A stretch of 64,000 bases of DNA from Acidimicrobiales bacterium. GTDB taxonomy: Bacteria > Actinomycetota > Acidimicrobiia > Acidimicrobiales > AC-14. The notes beneath the pieces were generated by a model. The model was not told where the DNA came from. It saw only the letters and a program-made list of their open reading frames with translations, and did no database searches. The stretch is from positions 2,976 to 66,975 of the forward strand of contig DATLEI010000027.1 of assembly GCA_035525375.1 (NCBI GenBank), read 5' to 3'. Position numbers and translations under genes: made by a program. Positions 29,183 through 61,475 of this stretch are shown piece after piece (the stretch's first letter is position 1; each line of letters opens with the position of its first letter).

Positions 29183-30255
29183 GCGTGGACACCGCCTTTG
29201 ACATTGAACACAACGACATGCCACCGGAGCGCTCTCGGCGCCCGCGTTGGGTGCTCGTCCTCCTCGGCATCCTCGCCGTGGCGGTCATTTTCGGGGCACT
29301 GGTCGTGTCGTGGGTGCGGGGCCAGATCAACCCTTCCGGTCCTCCGGGCAAAGAGGTGCAGATCACGGTGACCAAGGGAATGTCGACGGATTCTCTGGCT
29401 TCCTTGCTCGAGCGCGAGGGAGTCATCAAGAACGCGACCGTGTTCACGTACTACGCCCGTTTCAACGGCGCCGACGCCATCAAGGCCGGCGACTTCACCT
29501 TCCGCGCCAACTCCGATCTGGGTGAGGTCGTCAAGGTGCTCGATGCCGGGCCCAAGGTCGAGATCGACAGGATCACCATCCCCGAGGGCCTGACCCTGAA
29601 GGAGACCGCGGCCAAAGTGGCCACCCTTCCAGGACGTACGGCCGAGCGCTTTCTCGCCCTTGCCACCGACGGCACCATCCGGTCGCGTTATCAGCGGGCA
29701 GGCTCGAACAACCTCGAGGGTTATCTGATGCCCGAGACCTACTTCATCGATCGCAAGGACGACGAGGCCCGGATCTTGACTCGAATGGTGTCCGCGTTCG
29801 ACGACACTGCCGCACAACTCGACATCGCTGGCGGCGCGGCGAAGTTGGGTGTCACCCCCGACCAGGTCGTTGTCGTTGCCTCGCTCGTCGAACGCGAAGC
29901 CCGCGTTGACGAGGACAGAGCCAAGATCGCCCGGGTGATCTACAACCGCCTGGCCAGGAAGATGCCGTTGCAGATCGACGCGACCGTTCAGTACGCCCTC
30001 GGCGAGCAGAAGGCTCGTCTGCTCAACAGAGACCTGGAGATCAACTCGCCATACAACACCTACAAGGTGAGCGGGCTACCGCCAGGACCAATCGCCTCGC
30101 CCGGTCGCGAGTCGTTGGAGGCGGCCCTCAACCCCGCCGCCGGCAACTGGCTCTACTACGTGCTGGCCGACGCCAATGGCCGGCACAACTTCGCCGAGAC
30201 GTCGGCGCAGTTCGAGAAGTTCAAGGCCGAGGCCAAGGCGAAGGGCCTTCTCTGA
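29179..30255 (+). CDS. mltG: Endolytic murein transglycosylase MltG (YceG)
   Basis: ORF track 358 aa, ATGA overlap with ruvX. It has an N-terminal TM, then the YceG core (ASLVEREA...IARVIYNRL...LQIDATVQYAL...SPYNTYKVSGLPPGPIASPG). Confidence 0.93.
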   Translation: MSVDTAFDIEHNDMPPERSRRPRWVLVLLGILAVAVIFGALVVSWVRGQINPSGPPGKEVQITVTKGMSTDSLASLLEREGVIKNATVFTYYARFNGADAIKAGDFTFRANSDLGEVVKVLDAGPKVEIDRITIPEGLTLKETAAKVATLPGRTAERFLALATDGTIRSRYQRAGSNNLEGYLMPETYFIDRKDDEARILTRMVSAFDDTAAQLDIAGGAAKLGVTPDQVVVVASLVEREARVDEDRAKIARVIYNRLARKMPLQIDATVQYALGEQKARLLNRDLEINSPYNTYKVSGLPPGPIASPGRESLEAALNPAAGNWLYYVLADANGRHNFAETSAQFEKFKAEAKAKGLL

Positions 30256-31115
30256 GATTTCAGTGGGACGGTCTTGGGCGGACGGAGAGTGGCAATCGTC
30301 TCGTCGCGGTCATCGGTAGTCCGATCAGCCATTCCTTGTCACCGACAATCTTCAACGCTGCCTTCGAGTCGCTGTCGCTGGACTTGGAATACGTCGCCGT
30401 CGAGGTACCTCCCGGGCGGGCCGAAGAAGCCATCGACGAGGCCCGCGCCCTTGGCGTTATGGGCCTCTCCGTGACGATGCCGCACAAGGCGTCCGTGCTG
30501 CCTGCGCTGGACCGGCTCTCGGCCGCTGCGGAAGCCCTGGGCGCGGTGAACACAGTCCTGCGCGTCGGTGACGAACTGGTCGGCGACAACACCGACGGCC
30601 CCGGGTTCCTCGACGCCCTGGCGGCTGATGAGGGGTTCGATCCAGCCGGACGGCGCTGCGTTGTCTTTGGCGCCGGCGGCGCGGCCCGCGCCGTCATCCT
30701 GGCGCTCGCCGCCGCCGGCGCGGCTGAAGTCTCGGTCGTCAATCGGAACGCCGAGCACGCGGAGGTTGCCGTGCTGCTTGCCGGAGCCGTGGGACGTATC
30801 GGTGAGCCAGCCGACGTCAAGGGTGCCGACCTGATCGTCAACGCAACGCCAATCGGCATGCAAGGCCAACCCGCGGAACCGCTCTTCGAGACGTCGATAC
30901 TGGCCGAAGGCCAGCTCGTGGCCGATCTCGTCTATCACCCGTCGATCACGCCGCTCGTAGCCGAAGCCCGATCGAGAGGGGCTCGGGCCGTCAACGGCCT
31001 CGGCATGCTGATCCACCAGGCAGGACACTCGTTTCAGCTGTGGACGGGCCAGCCGCCCCCGCTGTCGGTGATGTCAGCGGCCGCAGTCTCCGCACTACGC
31101 CGCGACGGCCGTTGA
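30252..31115 (+). CDS. aroE: Shikimate dehydrogenase
   Basis: The ORF track starts at TTG 30336 (MSPTIFNAAF...). The same frame upstream encodes NRLVAVIGSPISHSL, which completes the conserved GSPIxHSxSP substrate motif. No ATG/GTG/TTG lies upstream in frame. CTG 30252 forms a CTGA overlap with the mltG stop (30253-30255). The stop is certain and the start is inferred. Confidence 0.88.
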   Translation: MRFQWDGLGRTESGNRLVAVIGSPISHSLSPTIFNAAFESLSLDLEYVAVEVPPGRAEEAIDEARALGVMGLSVTMPHKASVLPALDRLSAAAEALGAVNTVLRVGDELVGDNTDGPGFLDALAADEGFDPAGRRCVVFGAGGAARAVILALAAAGAAEVSVVNRNAEHAEVAVLLAGAVGRIGEPADVKGADLIVNATPIGMQGQPAEPLFETSILAEGQLVADLVYHPSITPLVAEARSRGARAVNGLGMLIHQAGHSFQLWTGQPPPLSVMSAAAVSALRRDGR

Positions 31116-43863: not shown

Positions 43864-47204
<3,341 letters not shown>

Positions 47205-47213
47205 GCGATCACG

Positions 47214-48143
47214 CTGCCTGACGCCGTTGATCTGTCGGCGCGAGTCGGCGCCCTCACGCTGCCGAACCCTGTCCTGACTGCGGCCGGGACCTCAGGGCAC
47301 GGCGCGGAACTGTCAGCGTTCTTCGATCTGTCGTCGTTGGGCGCCGTCGTCGTGAAGTCGATCTCGGCACAACCGTGGGGCGGGAACGCAGCGCCGCGAG
47401 TACACGAGGCTGACTTTGGCATGCTCAACTCGGTCGGGCTCCAGAACCCAGGCGTGGGGGATTGGCTCGCCGAGGAGGTGCCCGCTCTCGTTACTTCCGG
47501 CGCGCGCGTTGTCGCCTCGATCTGGGGGCGCGCCGTCGACGACTACGCGACTGTCGCATCCGCCCTTCGCGACGCGCCGGCGGCGGTGATCGCGGTTGAG
47601 GTCAACCTGAGCTGCCCAAACCTCGACGGTGGCCGTCACATGTTCGCCCACTCGACGTCAGCCACCAGCGAAGCCATCTCTGCCAGCCTCGGGTGTGGTC
47701 GTCCGGTGTGGGCGAAGCTGAGTCCGAATGTTGCCGACATCACCGAGATCGCCGGCGCGGCGATCTCCGCCGGTGCCAGCGCGCTCACCCTCGTCAACAC
47801 GGTGATGGGGATGGCGATCGACACCGAGACACGCCGCCCCATTCTCGGGGCAGGCACGGGGGGTCTAAGTGGACCTGCGATCCGCCCCGTCGCCGTTCGG
47901 GCGTTGCGCGAGTGCCATCTCGCGTTTCCCGACGTCTCGCTCGTCGGGGTCGGCGGAGTCAGCCGCGGTGAGCACGCGGTCGAGCTTCTGCTCGCCGGTG
48001 CCAGTGCCGTACAGGTCGGTACCGCCACCTTCGCCGATCCTCGCGCGCCGGCACGAGTCCTGGCCGAACTTCGGGACTGGTGTATCCGCCATGATGTCAC
48101 CGCCGTGTCTCAACTCGTGGGGAGTGTCTATGGAGCTTCGTGA
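47214..48143 (+). CDS. pyrD: Dihydroorotate dehydrogenase, class 1 (Cys catalytic base)
   Basis: The ORF track starts at TTG 47337. The same frame upstream, directly after the carB TAG at 47202-47204, encodes AITLPDAVDLSARVGALTLPNPVLTAAGTSGHGAELSAFFDLSS. This holds the conserved LxNPVxxAxGT N-terminal strand and loop. The only candidates are ATC 47208, CTG 47214 and CTG 47232. NLSCPN (Cys base) marks class 1. The stop is certain and the start is inferred. Confidence 0.87.
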   Translation: MPDAVDLSARVGALTLPNPVLTAAGTSGHGAELSAFFDLSSLGAVVVKSISAQPWGGNAAPRVHEADFGMLNSVGLQNPGVGDWLAEEVPALVTSGARVVASIWGRAVDDYATVASALRDAPAAVIAVEVNLSCPNLDGGRHMFAHSTSATSEAISASLGCGRPVWAKLSPNVADITEIAGAAISAGASALTLVNTVMGMAIDTETRRPILGAGTGGLSGPAIRPVAVRALRECHLAFPDVSLVGVGGVSRGEHAVELLLAGASAVQVGTATFADPRAPARVLAELRDWCIRHDVTAVSQLVGSVYGAS

Positions 48144-48810
48144 CCGACTGGTTCTGGCCCTCGACGTCGACGACCTCGTCGTCGCCTTGCGTCTGGGCCA
48201 TCAACTGCAACCGTGGTTCGGTGTGGCCAAAGTCGGGCTCGAGCTGTACGCCGCGGCCGGCCCTGATGCGGTAGCGAGCCTCAGCGAGGCCGGCTTCAAA
48301 GTCTTTCTCGATCTGAAGTTGCACGACATTCCGACGACCGTTCGTAAGGCAGCTCGCGTCGTCGGCGCGTTCGGCGCCAGCTATCTCACGCTCCACGCAC
48401 ATGGCGGACCGGTCATGCTGCGCGCCGGGGTCGACGGCCTCTCTGAAGGCGCGGCCGCCGCCGGTATGCCGCTACCGATGGCCGTAGCGGTCACGGTCCT
48501 CACGAGCGACGGGGACGCGCCACCGCACATCCTCGGGCGGCGTATCACCGCGGCAGTCGAGGGAGGATGCGGAGGTGTGGTCTGCGCCGCCGCTGATGTG
48601 CGAGAGGCCAAGCAATTGGCGCCGCGACTGAAGGCTGTGGTCCCGGGGATCCGGTTGCCGGGCTCAGATCCCAATGACCAGGCCCGGGCATCCACCCCGC
48701 AGCAGGCGCTCGCAGCGGGAGCCGACCTCCTGGTGGTCGGGCGGGCGGTGACAACCGCCGCAGATCCAGCCGCGGCTGCCGCCGCCCTGAGCGAGTCGCT
48801 GACCAGCTGA
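48130..48810 (+). CDS. pyrF: Orotidine 5'-phosphate decarboxylase
   Basis: The 3' part of ORF 47869-48810. ATG 48130 (14-nt overlap with pyrD) gives MELRDRLVLALDVDD...FLDLKLHDIPTTV...VVGRAVT. Confidence 0.93.
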   Translation: MELRDRLVLALDVDDLVVALRLGHQLQPWFGVAKVGLELYAAAGPDAVASLSEAGFKVFLDLKLHDIPTTVRKAARVVGAFGASYLTLHAHGGPVMLRAGVDGLSEGAAAAGMPLPMAVAVTVLTSDGDAPPHILGRRITAAVEGGCGGVVCAAADVREAKQLAPRLKAVVPGIRLPGSDPNDQARASTPQQALAAGADLLVVGRAVTTAADPAAAAAALSESLTS

Positions 48811-48865
48811 TGCAACCCTGAGACGGCCCGGAAGGCAATGAGCTGGGCGCGCTAGGGTGCCAGCC

Positions 48866-49189
48866 ATGCCGCTGCCTCCCACACTTTCTCCGGACGAGCG
48901 CCTGGCTGCGCTTGACAAAGCCGCCGCCGCTCGCCGCCAACGGGCCGAGCTCAAAGACAAGCTGAAGATCGGGTCCATCAATCTCAAGGAGCTGCTCGAC
49001 CAGAGCACTCGCGACGAGGTGGTGGGCAAGATGAAGGTGGTTGCCGTGCTCGAGTCCCTCCCCGGGGTGGGCAAGGTGCGGGCCCGTCGGCTGATGGAGG
49101 AGCTGCATATCAGCGAGGCCCGTCGCGTTCGGGGCCTCGGCGCTCAGCAGCGAGAAGCGCTTCTTCGGCAGTTCCCCGCGACGTCCTGA
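48866..49189 (+). CDS. mihF: Actinobacterial integration host factor MihF
   Basis: ORF track 48857 (GTG). ATG 48866 gives MPLPPTLSPDERLAALDKAAAARRQRAELKDKLK...LESLPGVGKVRARRLMEEL...RRVRGLG, closely resembling mycobacterial mIHF as I recall it. Confidence 0.9.
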   Translation: MPLPPTLSPDERLAALDKAAAARRQRAELKDKLKIGSINLKELLDQSTRDEVVGKMKVVAVLESLPGVGKVRARRLMEELHISEARRVRGLGAQQREALLRQFPATS

Positions 49190-49761
49190 GCAAGACGCCT
49201 TCTCGACCCCTCCTCTTTGTCATCGTCGGTCCATCCGGCGCCGGCAAGGGATCGATCGTCGCCGGTCTGTCGCGTCGCGTGCCCCAGCTCTGGTTGAGCC
49301 GATCCTGGACAACCCGCCCGCCGCGCGTCGGCGAAGCGGCCGACGCCTACAAATTCGTCGACCGCGACACCTTCCTTGCTCACGCTGATTCCGGCGGGTT
49401 CGTCGAGTCGGCCGAGGTCTTCGGGCATCTGTACGGAACGCCCATTCCCGACCCGCCGGTGGGAAACGACCTGCTGCTCGAAATCGACGTGCAGGGAGCA
49501 AACCAAGTTCGGACGTTGCATCCCGATGCCGTGGTGATCCTCATCGACGTCCCATCGCGTGCGGCTCAGGAGGAGCGCCTGCGGGCGCGAGGCGACGACG
49601 AAGCGCTGATCGCGCGCCGCTTGGCGCGCGCCGACGCCGAAGCTGAAGCGGGCAGAGCCCTCGCCGACTACGTCATCGTCAACGAAGACTTGGACCGGGC
49701 CATCGAGGAGTCGGCTGCTATCGTGGAGATGCACCGCAGCGTAGGTTCGCCTCCGAGCTGA
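49186..49761 (+). CDS. gmk: Guanylate kinase
   Basis: The ORF track starts at GTG 49279 ([19 protein letters not shown]...). The same frame upstream encodes [31 protein letters not shown], which contains the essential P-loop. No ATG/GTG/TTG lies upstream in frame. CTG 49186 forms a CTGA overlap with the mihF stop (49187-49189). This gives 191 aa, a family-typical length. Confidence 0.9.
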
Positions 49762-49792
49762 CCGCCTGATCAACCCGACTGGAGTTACCCAG

Positions 49793-50059
49793 ATGTCCGA
49801 ACGCGCGACGATGATCTACCCGCCGATCGAAGACCTTCTCGACAAGGTCGACTCGAAGTTCAGCCTGGTGAGCCTCGCCGCCAAGCGCGGACGGCAGATC
49901 AACTCGTACTTCAGCCAGCTCGGTGAGGGTCTGGGCTCCATTGTGCCGCCGCAGGTCGCTTCGGTTTCCCGCAAGCCGCTGTCCATCGCGCTCGAAGAGA
50001 TCGCCGCGAGCAAGATCACCTACACCCGTCCTGAAGAGGTCGAGGACACCGAGAAGTGA
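49793..50059 (+). CDS. rpoZ: DNA-directed RNA polymerase subunit omega
   Basis: ORF track 88 aa. [26 protein letters not shown] is the RpoZ core, and GGAG lies upstream of the ATG. Confidence 0.93.
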
Positions 50060-51273
50060 CCCCACCCGCAGGCCGGAGGATCGTCCTCGGGATCTGCGGG
50101 GGAATTGCTGCCTACAAGGTCGTCGAGGTGTGCCGCCAACTGGTCGACGGCGGGGCGCACGTCACACCGGTGATGACCCACGACGCCGCCCGCTTTGTTG
50201 GCGAAGCCACTTTCTCCGCCCTGGCATCCGAAAGGGTGCAGTCGTCGTTGTGGTGCGAGCACGACCCCATTCCGCACACTGCTCTGGCGCGCCGGGCCGA
50301 CGTCGTTGTGGTTGCGCCTGCGACGGCCAACTTCCTCGCCCGCTATGCGGCCGGAATTACCGACGACCTGCTGACCGCCACACTGCTCGCCACCCGCGCG
50401 CCGGTCATCGTTTGCCCGGCGATGCACACCGAGATGTGGGAGCACCCGGCAGTGCAGGACAACGTCGCCACCCTGAGAGCCCGAGGCGTGCAGATCGTCG
50501 GCCCAGCGTCGGGTCATCTCGCCGGTGGCGATGAGGGCGCAGGTCGCCTCGTCGAACCGGACGCGATCCTCGCAGCCGTCGAGGCGACGCTCATGCCGCA
50601 CGATCTGACCGGTCGCAAACTCCTTGTCACTGCCGGTGGCACCCGCGAGCCCATGGACGCGGTGCGCTTCATAGGCAACCGCTCTTCCGGAAAGCAGGGC
50701 TACGCCTTGGCGGCCGAGGCCGCGGCACGCGGCGCGAAGGTAACGCTCGTCACGACGGTCGACCGGCGCGTGGCTGCCCCTATCGACATCGTGCGGGTCC
50801 AGACCGCAGCCGAGATGGCCGACGCCGTCTCGGAGCGGAGCCAGCAAGCAGACGCAGTGATCATGGCCGCTGCCGTTGCCGATTTCCGACCTCAGTTCGC
50901 CGCATCGGGGAAGATGACGAAGGCTGACGGCCCGCCTGCGCTCGTGCTCGAGCCAACTGCCGACATCCTGGCCCAGCTCGGTCAGGAGAAGCGTCCGGGG
51001 CAGGTGCTAGTTGGGTTTGCGGCCGAGGCCGGCAGTGATGAACTCGCGAGCCGCGCCGAAGCCAAGCTGCGACAGAAGAATCTCGACATCATCGTCGCTA
51101 ACGACGTCACCATGGCCGGTGCCGGTTTTGACACCGACACCAATCGCGCCATGATCATCCGTGCCGACGGCACCAACCAAGAAGTGCCCTTGGTCGACAA
51201 GCGGGAGCTGGCCAGGCGCGTCATCGACGCCGTCGCCAGTCAACTATCGGAGTCAGTCAGGAGGAAGTCATGA
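50056..51273 (+). CDS. coaBC: Bifunctional phosphopantothenoylcysteine decarboxylase / phosphopantothenate--cysteine ligase
   Basis: ORF track 405 aa, GTGA overlap with rpo[46 protein letters not shown]. Confidence 0.95.
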
Positions 51274-56744: not shown

Positions 56745-56785
56745 CGCGCGAGGTGCCCCGGGGTGCCCTGGCCTAGGTTGGCCCC

Positions 56786-57778
56786 ATTCTTGCTCTCAGC
56801 GTCCTTGATCAGACACCGGTTCCCGAGGGCACGGATCCGGCTCAGGCCTTAGCGGACACGATCCGGCTCGCCCAGGCCGCCGACCGCTTGGGATACACCC
56901 GCTACTGGCTAGCTGAGCACCACAACACCCGGTCGTTGGCCGGTACGACTCCCGAGGTCATGGTCGCTGCAGTTGCGAGCGCCACGTCGCGTATTCGGGT
57001 CGGATCGGGCGGGGTGCTGTTGCCGTACCGCAACCCGATGATGGTGGCCGAAGCGTTTCGGATGCTGCATTCACTCTTCCCGGGCCGCATCGACCTTGGT
57101 GTCGGTCGGGCGGCAGGAACGGACCCGGCGACCGAGGAGCTGCTACGCCGCGGACCGGTTGAACTGGGCGAAGAGTGGTTCCCGCAGCAGGTCGCGGACC
57201 TCGTTGGTTACGTTCACGACAACGAGACGATGCCTGCCGGTTCTGGCGCGCCTGCGGTCTGGCTGCTCGGATCGAGCAGCCAAAGCAGTGGCTGCGCCGC
57301 CTATCTCGGTCTGGCCTTTTCGTTTGCCCACTTCATCAGTCCCACCTACGGGCCTCAAATCGTGAATGCCTACCGGCGCGGCTTTCAACGTTCGGAGGTG
57401 CTTGATGAGCCTCGGGTGAGCGTCGCTGTGTCGGTGGTCTGCGCAGACACCGACGAAGAGGCCCGGCGCGTGGCCTCAACGGCTGATCTCTGGCGACTGG
57501 GTCCGGAGGGTGCGGAACGGGCCCCCATCGTGCCCAGTGCTGATGCTGCCGCTGTAGTCGCCACCCTCACTGACCTACAACGCGAACGGTTGGCTCAAGC
57601 GAAGTCGAAGGTCATTGTCGGTGCCCCCGACGTGGTCAGGGCGAAGATGACCACGCTCGCCGATGAGTTCGGGATCAATGAACTCATCGTGCTGACGGTG
57701 TGCCATGACCCGAGGGCGCGCCAACGCTCCTACGAGCTCCTGGCAGAGGCCTTCAGTCTCAGCTCTGGGGCGCGCTGA
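56786..57778 (+). CDS. LLM class (luciferase-like) flavin-dependent oxidoreductase
   Basis: The ORF track starts at TTG 56888 (MGYTRYWLAEHHNT...). The same frame upstream, open only from the TAG at 56774-56776, encodes VGPILALSVLDQTPVPEGTDPAQALADTIRLAQAADR. This matches the conserved N-terminus of this family (..LSLLD..PIPEG......LA...E.LGY.RYW.AEHH). The only recognised initiator there is ATT 56786. The stop is certain and the start is inferred. Confidence 0.85.
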   Translation: MLALSVLDQTPVPEGTDPAQALADTIRLAQAADRLGYTRYWLAEHHNTRSLAGTTPEVMVAAVASATSRIRVGSGGVLLPYRNPMMVAEAFRMLHSLFPGRIDLGVGRAAGTDPATEELLRRGPVELGEEWFPQQVADLVGYVHDNETMPAGSGAPAVWLLGSSSQSSGCAAYLGLAFSFAHFISPTYGPQIVNAYRRGFQRSEVLDEPRVSVAVSVVCADTDEEARRVASTADLWRLGPEGAERAPIVPSADAAAVVATLTDLQRERLAQAKSKVIVGAPDVVRAKMTTLADEFGINELIVLTVCHDPRARQRSYELLAEAFSLSSGAR

Positions 57779-60260: not shown

Positions 60261-61475
60261 ATGGCCTTCGCCAGCATCGAGGACGCGATTGTTGCCTTCG
60301 CGCGTGGCGACATCGTCGTCGTGGTCGACGACGCCAGTCGCGAGAACGAGGGCGATCTCATCATGGCGGCCGAGTTCGCGACCTCCGAGAGGCTGGCGTT
60401 CTTTCTCAATCACACGTCGGGCGTCATCTGTATTCCCATGACGGGAGATCGCCTCGACTCCCTCGAGCTGCCGCCCATGGTGTTCGAAAACACCGAGAGC
60501 AACCGCACCGCCTTCACGGTGTCGGTCGATGCTCGCGAGGGGGCGACGACGGGGATCTCGGCCGCGGACCGGGCGGCGACGATCGCCGCCCTGATCGATC
60601 CTGCGACGAAGCCGGTCGACCTCGCTCGGCCGGGTCACATGTTTCCGCTTCGCTATCGCGACGGCGGCGTCCTCAAGCGGGGCGGGCACACTGAGGCCGC
60701 GGTCGACCTGGCCCGTATGGCCGGCCTCTTTCCGGCCGGCGTGCTCTCGGAGGTCGTCAGCGAGGACAAGACGGGTATGGCGCGGCTTCCAGAACTCGAA
60801 CGCTTCGCGGCCACTCACGGCTTACTGATCATCTCCATTGCGGACCTCATCCGCTATCGCCGCCAGTCGGAGAAGCTCGTGCGGCGAATTGTCGAAGCCA
60901 CCCGGATCCCCACGCAGTTCGGCGACTTCAGCGGCTACATCTACGAGTCGCTCCTCGACGGCGACCAGCACCTTGCCCTCGTGAAGGGCGCAGTGCAGGG
61001 CGAGGAGAACGTGCTGGTGAGGGTCCACTCTGAGTGCCTCACCGGCGACGTATTCGGCTCCATGCGCTGCGATTGCGGATCGCAACTGGGTGCCGCAATG
61101 CAGATGATCGCCACCGAGGGGCTGGGAGCCGTCGTCTACTTGCGGGGGCACGAGGGGCGCGGTATCGGTATCGCCCACAAGCTCCGCGCCTACACACTGC
61201 AAGACCAGGGCCGCGACACCGTCGATGCCAACCTCGACCTCGGGCTGCCGATCGACAGCAGGGAGTACGGCATCGGTGCCCAGATACTGGTCGACCTCGG
61301 CATCACCACGATGCGGCTGCTCACGAACAACCCCGCCAAGTACGGCGGCCTCGAGGGCTACGGGCTCGAGATCGTCGAGCGTGTCGGGCTGCAACCCACA
61401 TCGAACCCCGAGAACATCGCCTACCTCCGTACGAAGCAGAAGCGGCTCGGGCACCTCCTCGAAGGGCTCGACTGA
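60261..61475 (+). CDS. ribBA: Bifunctional 3,4-dihydroxy-2-butanone-4-phosphate synthase / GTP cyclohydrolase II
   Basis: ORF track 404 aa. [27 protein letters not shown] and [16 protein letters not shown] are the DHBP synthase part. [24 protein letters not shown] is the GCH II zinc site. Confidence 0.96.

Follow-up and report, generated by a model that had tools for sequence, protein, structure and literature searches.

Where does translation of the guanylate kinase gene gmk begin in the 64,000-nucleotide (nt) stretch of contig DATLEI010000027.1 from an Acidimicrobiales bacterium? This whole stretch, with a G+C content of ~66%, is referred to here as the window. Its gmk frame contains no ATG, GTG or TTG codon until well past the sequence that encodes the nucleotide-binding core of the enzyme, and the gene is nevertheless intact and embedded in a conserved operon. 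The answer that best fits the evidence, to which we assign a rough probability of 0.78, is that gmk is translated from a CUG codon, at position 49186, by ribosomes that have just terminated on the upstream gene mihF and re-initiate at the overlapping start. The features on which the argument turns are as follows.

48866–49189, + strand: mihF, encoding an actinobacterial integration-host-factor-like nucleoid protein, 107 aa from ATG 48866, with an alternative start at GTG 48857
48913–48915, + strand: in-frame TGA, the upstream limit of the gmk start search, found by codon walk
49186–49188, + strand: CTG, the proposed gmk initiation codon, in a −4 overlap (CTGA) and the sole near-cognate codon 5′ of strand beta1 in the open frame
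49186–49761, + strand: gmk, guanylate kinase, 191 codons from CTG to TGA 49759–49761, assigned by Pfam PF00625, PDB matches and an AlphaFold2 model
49187–49189, + strand: TGA, the mihF stop, which shares its T and G with the second and third positions of the gmk CTG
49213–49227, + strand: strand beta1 (LFVIV), which leads into the phosphate-binding loop (P-loop), assigned to residues 10–14 by DSSP on the AlphaFold2 model
49222–49224, + strand: ATC, a rival near-cognate start, at residue 13 inside beta1, used by the public gene call P0001 (179 aa)
49228–49251, + strand: Walker A motif or P-loop, GPSGAGKG, residues 15–22
49279–49281, + strand: GTG, the first canonical in-frame start, at residue 32, past beta1, the P-loop and helix alpha1

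The gmk reading frame and its product

The gmk frame is open from 48916, that is, for 90 codons 5′ of CTG 49186, and a codon walk found no ATG, GTG or TTG between the in-frame TGA at 48913–48915 and GTG 49279. Among the alternative initiators of translation table 11, only CTG 49186 and ATC 49222 lie 5′ of the P-loop in this open frame. Judged by its sequence, the product is a true guanylate kinase, with nothing odd in the protein itself; only its translation start is unusual. It matches the family profile PF00625 with E=1.1e-22 and 81 bits (cut-off 25.2) over profile positions 5–180 of 182, and solved guanylate kinases in the PDB match it down to E=2e-33, in alignments that start at residues 5–12 of the CTG-started protein. 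The S-x-T-T-R motif that binds guanosine monophosphate (GMP) is present, and the segment that carries it is invariant across 16 homologues. The AlphaFold2 model, built with the 16 homologues, has a pLDDT (predicted local distance difference test) of 91 and the expected alternating order of strands and helices. DSSP assigned residues 10–14 of this model to beta1 and residues 21–31 to alpha1. Upstream of beta1, the N-terminal tail that would be translated from the CTG is short and variable (SKTPSRP).

The placement of these elements matters for the choice of start. A protein begun at GTG 49279 would, according to the model, be without the nucleotide-binding core, and because beta1, the P-loop and alpha1 are all encoded 5′ of this codon, no canonical start can give a functional Gmk. 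The upstream segment also carries the marks of a translated sequence. Residues G15, P16, S17, G18, G20, K21 and G22 of the P-loop are invariant across the 16 homologues, and the P-loop codons of close relatives differ mostly synonymously (GGT/GGC/GGA, CCA/CCT/CCC/CCG and AAG/AAA), the sole amino-acid change being at the variable residue 19 (A/V). Taking beta1 together with the adjoining P-loop, the close relatives show few amino-acid changes and many synonymous ones. Since codon changes there are mostly synonymous, the sequence comparison clearly indicates that the region 5′ of GTG 49279 is translated in the gmk frame and is under purifying selection.

An earlier reading of the same letters, made without database searches and called here the sequence-only reading, had reached the same position. 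It had placed the CTG at 49186, the mihF stop at 49187–49189, GPSGAGKG at 49228–49251 and the first canonical start at GTG 49279, and all of its sequence statements and coordinates are right. It had named CTG 49186 and ATC 49222 as the only alternative initiators, which the codon walk bears out. The homologues and relatives likewise uphold its view that the P-loop has to be translated, and the AlphaFold2 model agrees with it that GTG 49279 cannot be the start and that ATC 49222 would cut the strand preceding the P-loop.

The mihF–gmk junction across the class Acidimicrobiia

Hits to named database entries and to related genomes assign the window organism to the Acidimicrobiales or Acidimicrobiia. 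For comparison, we used 80 species-level genome loci, all Acidimicrobiia-like, together with the contigs behind nine truncated public gene calls. In each locus, the P-loop was located with relaxed regular expressions, along with the in-frame upstream stop, the candidate starts and the mihF stop. A locus was scored as having no canonical start when no ATG, GTG or TTG occurred in the stretch that begins 60 nt inside mihF and ends four codons short of the P-loop. On this definition, 29 of the 75 mihF–gmk loci, including the window, lack a canonical start ahead of the P-loop, and the near-cognate codon available is CTG in 28 of them and ATC in one.

Of the 29 start-less loci, 17 have their CTG in a CTGA overlap with the mihF stop, and seven distances to the P-loop occur among these 17 (−63, −42, −39, −36, −27, −21 and −18 nt). 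Outside the 29, the overlap is found at −33 in L012 and at −69 in L164 and L165, and the CTGA geometry is present in 21 of the 75 loci overall, four of which also have a downstream canonical codon. As the overlap is seen at so many distances from the P-loop, the CTG appears to track the mihF stop and not a fixed position in the protein.

Canonical codons take the same place in other members of the class. GTGA stands at the mihF–gmk junction in 10 loci and ATGA in 5 (L059, L060, L074, L077 and L080). At the position occupied by the window's own junction (−42/−41), L057 has GTGA. At −39/−38, there is GTGA in L047, ATGA in L059 and L060, and CTGA in L056, whereas at −33/−25, where the overlap is −8, TTG in L051, L054 and L071 is set against CTG in L025 and L072. 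In four loci (L009, L018, L027 and L079), the in-frame stop lies only 8–15 codons before the P-loop, and possible starts are limited to a CTG six codons before the P-loop or an adjacent ATC/ATA codon; ten other loci have TTG, ATG or GTG at the same place. Within the close group of the window organism, CTG at the gmk junction is conserved, and the close relative L166 has a conventional GGAGG-N4-ATG start six codons before its P-loop. Fitch parsimony on a neighbour-joining Gmk tree, which as a single-protein tree is a rough guide, gives at least 14 switches between canonical and non-canonical starts. These sequence comparisons indicate that the missing canonical start is a gene-specific habit of gmk across the class Acidimicrobiia and not a one-off. 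They also strengthen the case for CTG 49186, in its CTGA overlap, as the best start candidate, as the sequence-only reading had proposed; the ATG or GTG that it suggested looking for at the homologous codon of relatives is indeed there (GTGA in L057 and L047, ATGA in L059 and L060).

Two local peculiarities were seen among these loci. In L018 and L027, whose junction lies ~30 nt before the P-loop, the sequence CCTGATCCTCG-CTGATCGTCG resembles a tandem duplication of ~10 nt of the CTGATC junction found in L013 and its relatives; the duplication puts the mihF TGA in the gmk frame, and a second CTG, 6 nt past the stop, is the only possible start. In L007, the gmk frame is open for 774 codons upstream, which is unusually long.

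Flanking genes served as controls, with the same N-terminal anchor method applied to the same loci. By this method, a canonical start is absent 5′ of beta1 in 23 of 76 gmk genes, against 0 of 69 for mihF, 0 of 78 for rpoZ, 0 of 70 for metK, 2 of 72 for coaBC and 1 of 39 for pyrD. The exceptions without a canonical start 5′ of the N-terminal anchor are coaBC in L030 and L031 and pyrD in L012. Beyond the class, gmk lacks a canonical start in 0 of 50 loci, 33 of which have a G+C content of at least 60%; this set came from a metagenome scan with a single protein, and apart from L081, the only close relative in it, it serves as an out-group control. With the flanking genes at 0–2 per ~70 and the out-group at 0 of 50, the effect is specific to gmk and to the class, and not a by-product of high G+C content.

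At the junction itself, the two genes share bases. The end of mihF reads ACG TCC TGA, and the gmk frame, one base earlier, reads GTC CTG AGC. Changing the gmk CTG to CTC would turn the mihF stop from TGA into TCA, with loss of the stop, while G49188A gives CTA and TAA and keeps it. The identity of mihF is supported by Pfam H2TH_5 (PF22525, E=1e-30, residues 36–106 of the 110-aa GTG-started form), and its gene calls in relatives are 107 aa long. The last sense codon of mihF is TCC in 9 of 9 close relatives, whereas neighbouring third positions vary freely. Among the window genes, TCG is the commonest serine codon (0.38 vs 0.21 for TCC), and TCG at this place would give GTGA. The constant TCC hints that the C of CTGA is maintained, in a sample that is small and made up of related genomes.

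No Shine-Dalgarno (SD) sequence lies within 20 nt of CTG 49186, and none was found at the mihF–gmk junctions of the relatives, of both the CTG and the canonical type. This absence at both kinds of junction alike fits coupling to mihF translation. No promoter-like site was detected in 48600–50100, and the promoter and terminator scan returned nothing relevant between mihF and gmk.

We therefore propose the following course of events, in which the initiation at CUG, the use of formyl-methionyl initiator tRNA (fMet-tRNA), the coupling to mihF termination and the adaptive value of a weak codon are all inferred from sequence. Ribosomes ending MihF at UGA 49187–49189 would shift one base back and re-initiate at CUG 49186, which the initiator tRNA would decode as initiator methionine. 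Like GUG and UUG, CUG mismatches the CAU anticodon in its first base alone. The event would be termination–reinitiation at a −4 (NUGA) overlap with C as its N in place of A, G or U, and its product would be the full-length, 191-residue guanylate kinase. Without an SD sequence, gmk expression would depend on mihF translation, and a weak CUG fed by a heavily translated nucleoid-protein gene would probably yield a low, fixed Gmk:MihF ratio. The general elements of this scheme are known: re-initiation works only where genes overlap or lie a very short way apart (PMC10666635), overlaps are most often of the NTGA type and ribosomes use whichever start is nearest to the stop (PMC12548453), and CUG, AUA, AUC and AUU initiate at 1–2% of AUG in Escherichia coli reporters (bioRxiv 10.1101/063800). 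Initiation factor 3 (IF3) normally suppresses both non-canonical starts and SD-less re-initiation (PMC2268962).

Several considerations weigh against re-initiation at the CUG. Initiation at this codon is read from the letters of the DNA, and with a TGA stop in this phase, a C at N is often expected by composition, which makes CTGA by itself weak evidence. The phases among loci without ATGA or GTGA run at ~21:10:20, a skew that is not significant and was given no weight. In six start-less loci (L009, L033, L039, L055, L079 and L167), the CTG lies 11–55 nt past the mihF stop, and strict −4 coupling is thus not universal in the class. ATC 49222 may act as a minor or alternative start. The annotated NUGA overlaps of Mycobacterium tuberculosis include no CUG starts (bioRxiv 10.1101/2022.06.01.494293). 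Finally, phylogenetic independence does not hold among the related loci, many of which are metagenome-assembled genomes (MAGs), some of them from long reads.

Other routes to a guanylate kinase

The strongest competitor is translation from AUC 49222, giving a protein of 179 residues, which we consider improbable though still worth weighing. AUC is a table-11 near-cognate with an intrinsic strength in E. coli about equal to that of CUG (bioRxiv 10.1101/063800), an ATC is found at the equivalent position in all close relatives, and the public call for the window gmk, P0001, starts there. Such a protein, however, would begin at residue 13 and lose three of the five residues of beta1, a strand of the core sheet, and the guanylate kinases of the PDB align from residues 5–12, before the AUC-encoded residue. 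ATC is simply the usual isoleucine codon of this conserved strand residue, and the start-less loci L011, L068 and L002 have no ATC or ATT at that position. The codon also lies 33 nt 3′ of the mihF stop without an SD sequence, whereas re-initiation prefers the nearest codon (PMC12548453, PMC10666635). On these grounds, the ATC of P0001 is a weaker choice than CTG 49186.

A programmed −1 frameshift near the end of mihF would yield a MihF–Gmk fusion, and gmk would then need no start of its own. Relative to mihF, gmk lies in the −1 frame, which is open over the 90 codons 5′ of the CTG, and in L010 mihF and gmk stand in one frame. Against this, no slippery heptamer of the form X_XXY_YYZ is present or conserved in the last mihF codons, the gmk frame is closed 9–24 codons 5′ of the CTG in L019, L062, L161 and L001, where the sequence is variable, and loci in the other two phases, including those with in-frame stops (L018, L027 and L079), would each need another mechanism. 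We regard the frameshift as very unlikely. The apparent fusion in L010 (2141–2560) was examined as a candidate and rejected: CTGA is kept in the expected place, and a 1-nt indel just 5′ of the junction is likely in this long-read MAG.

Less likely again is a start at GTG 49279, or the decay of this copy into a pseudogene, with the activity coming from another intact gmk elsewhere in the genome. In favour of this, no canonical start comes before GTG 49279, the corresponding 160-aa reading frame is what gene finders call in relatives, and our inspection covered 64 kb of the genome. Within this window, no second gmk was found, and the 31 codons 5′ of the GTG keep an intact P-loop under purifying selection. 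The gene sits in the conserved context pyrF–mihF–gmk–rpoZ–coaBC, and a start-less state that recurs in 29 of 75 species-level genomes is not credible as a series of independent pseudogenes.

Least probable of all is a wrong base at 49186, with sequencing or assembly having put C for G or A and the real junction being GTGA or ATGA, an error that the sequence-only reading had named as a possible refutation. The organism is uncultured, and the runs listed as holding this sequence are labelled either "DNA?" or as of unknown kind. The source is a low-coverage soil metagenome, and in the best-matching run, X1, the junction is covered by fragmentary Logan contigs, but a 238-nt contig from an independent soil-metagenome run, X2, spans 49163–49400 with no difference listed at 49186, and seven independent assemblies of close relatives have the same TCC-TGA/CTG junction.

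Re-initiation at CUG 49186, coupled to mihF termination, is thus the reading carried forward here.

Gene calls, near-cognate starts elsewhere and known systems

Downstream of gmk, the operon continues with two genes whose starts are of the expected kinds.

49793–50059, + strand: rpoZ (Pfam PF01192), which shares the operon and has a conventional start, ATG 49793 with GGAG ahead of it
50056–51273, + strand: coaBC, whose GTG 50056 overlaps the rpoZ TGA (GTGA) and whose own TGA overlaps the metK ATG 51270 (ATGA)

Overlaps of −4 with a canonical N are the norm in the mihF–gmk operon, as the rpoZ/coaBC (GTGA) and coaBC/metK (ATGA) junctions show. Over the whole window, our own gene map gave 9 ATGA, 4 GTGA, 2 TTGA and 5 CTGA among −4 same-strand overlaps with an open downstream frame; the map was drawn from a self-trained codon-usage log-likelihood, and G+C content at third codon positions alone did not separate sense from antisense frames. 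Among the five CTGA overlaps, those of gmk and aroE look real, two are ambiguous and the one at 61472 looks coincidental. The last was rejected as a start, with ribH beginning at ATG 61475 in a TGATG overlap.

Three genes other than gmk encode conserved N-terminal residues ahead of their first canonical codon.

30252–31115, + strand: aroE, shikimate dehydrogenase; Pfam Shikimate_dh_N begins at residue 20 of the CTG-30252-started protein
47205–48143, + strand: pyrD; the frame opens directly behind the carB stop TAG 47202–47204, and Pfam DHO_dh matches from its residue 11
56777–57778, + strand: a luciferase-like monooxygenase; Pfam Bac_luciferase runs from residue 9 of the open frame

In aroE, a second case like gmk, CTG 30252 forms a CTGA overlap with the stop of an upstream YceG/MltG-like gene (29185–30255). 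TTG 30336, the first canonical start, comes only after the conserved GSPISHSLSP motif, and the only other candidate is ATC 30312. In pyrD, the conserved LPNPVLTAAGTSGHG motif is encoded ahead of any canonical start, the first of which is TTG 47337; ATC 47208 and CTG 47214 are the candidates. A canonical codon occurs somewhere 5′ of this motif in all 46 related loci analysed, and the pyrD case therefore looks specific to the window organism. The first canonical codon of the monooxygenase gene, TTG 56888, corresponds to residue 38, and only ATT 56786 (ILALSVLDQ...) or ATC 56861 could serve before it, without any stop overlap. Weaker candidates are the CTGA at the start of an extracytoplasmic function (ECF) sigma factor gene (16563, + strand; GTG 16578 follows five codons later), the CTGA at the start of a DUF3105 gene (63486, − strand; GTG 63456 follows ten codons later) and CTG 4952 (+ strand) in an M48 (HtpX-like) peptidase gene, where it precedes the part for the N-terminal membrane helix and the first canonical codon is GTG 5009. 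In these three, the Pfam domains begin too far in to decide.

Altogether, four of ~65 genes in the 64 kb (gmk, aroE, pyrD and the luciferase-like monooxygenase) have conserved N-terminal domain residues 5′ of any canonical start. The window organism may, then, tolerate near-cognate starts generally, or have relaxed start-codon proofreading. If true, this would point to lineage-specific changes in IF3, initiator tRNA or the handling of ribosomes after termination. No tRNA genes were found in the window.

The habit of gmk has left its trace in public gene calls. Among the 120 nearest public gmk homologue clusters, 51 have at least four residues before the P-loop, while 69 are cut near it: 39 start 0–3 residues before the P-loop, 24 start inside it (MGKG.../VGKG...) and 6 start after it. 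The 160-aa truncated calls equivalent to a GTG 49279 start are P0017, P0037, P0039 and P0040. The DNA behind eight truncated calls in relatives contains, in each case, no canonical start and a CTG at or near the mihF stop. Since standard gene finders accept ATG, GTG and TTG alone as starts, their calls lose the P-loop of gmk. Truncated Gmk calls of this kind distort protein families, structure predictions and metabolic reconstructions for a class that is widespread in soil and aquatic habitats. One call of a different kind, P0090 (309 aa), begins as a gmk truncated at the P-loop (MGKGAIAAGL...), passes into rpoZ sequence and continues out of frame; it is probably an artefact of assembly or gene calling, on a 246-kb contig.

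A broader proposal can be made more tentatively, and we think it the less probable side of the question: that CUG, and occasionally AUC or AUU, is a routine initiator in Acidimicrobiia, and that the CUG of gmk has been selected to throttle Gmk relative to the abundant MihF. Selection on the CUG is proposed because the last mihF codon is constantly TCC in the close relatives although TCG is preferred. If selection does act on the conserved C, gmk would be a plain example of a start codon kept weak on purpose, and coupling a weak start to an upstream gene with strong translation offers an easy means of fixing the expression ratio at a low value. The mihF–gmk junction also offers a natural CUG/GUG/AUG/UUG series at one stop/start overlap, generated by the inferred switches described above. 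Such a series gives a comparative handle on the role of start-codon identity in re-initiation, a process argued between 30S and 70S models. The value of the finding thus lies in its class-wide recurrence in an essential gene, in the natural codon series and in the systematic mis-annotation that it exposes.

In the literature searched, no paper was found that describes a CTG or CTGA start, whether for gmk or in Acidimicrobiia. Set beside known systems, the gene and its surroundings are ordinary: gmk matches guanylate kinases (PF00625; PDB 10sr, 6wct, 2an9 and 1znw) over its full length, including the P-loop, the GMP-binding TTR motif and the lid region, and the mihF–gmk–rpoZ context is typical of actinobacteria. 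The junction resembles coupled NTGA pairs (PMC12548453, PMC10666635) in that both genes lie on the same strand in an operon, the TGA shares two bases with the start and there is no SD sequence. It differs from canonical NTGA pairs in that N is C, giving a CUG outside the set ATG/GTG/TTG, and in that coupling is here proposed from sequence. It differs likewise from the annotated overlaps of the M. tuberculosis NUGA survey cited above, where CUG starts are absent.

The closest parallels in regulation are genes with weak starts. The sigR gene of Streptomyces starts with GTC and is repressed through IF3 (PMC5472188), and infC of E. coli starts with AUU and is autoregulated (cited in PMC2268962). 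Like these two, gmk is a conserved gene whose only possible start appears to be a weak, non-canonical codon, and low or tunable translation is the likely consequence common to all three. Unlike sigR and infC, gmk would use CUG, in a codon that is embedded in the stop of the upstream gene and that has toggled with GTG, ATG and TTG many times within one class.

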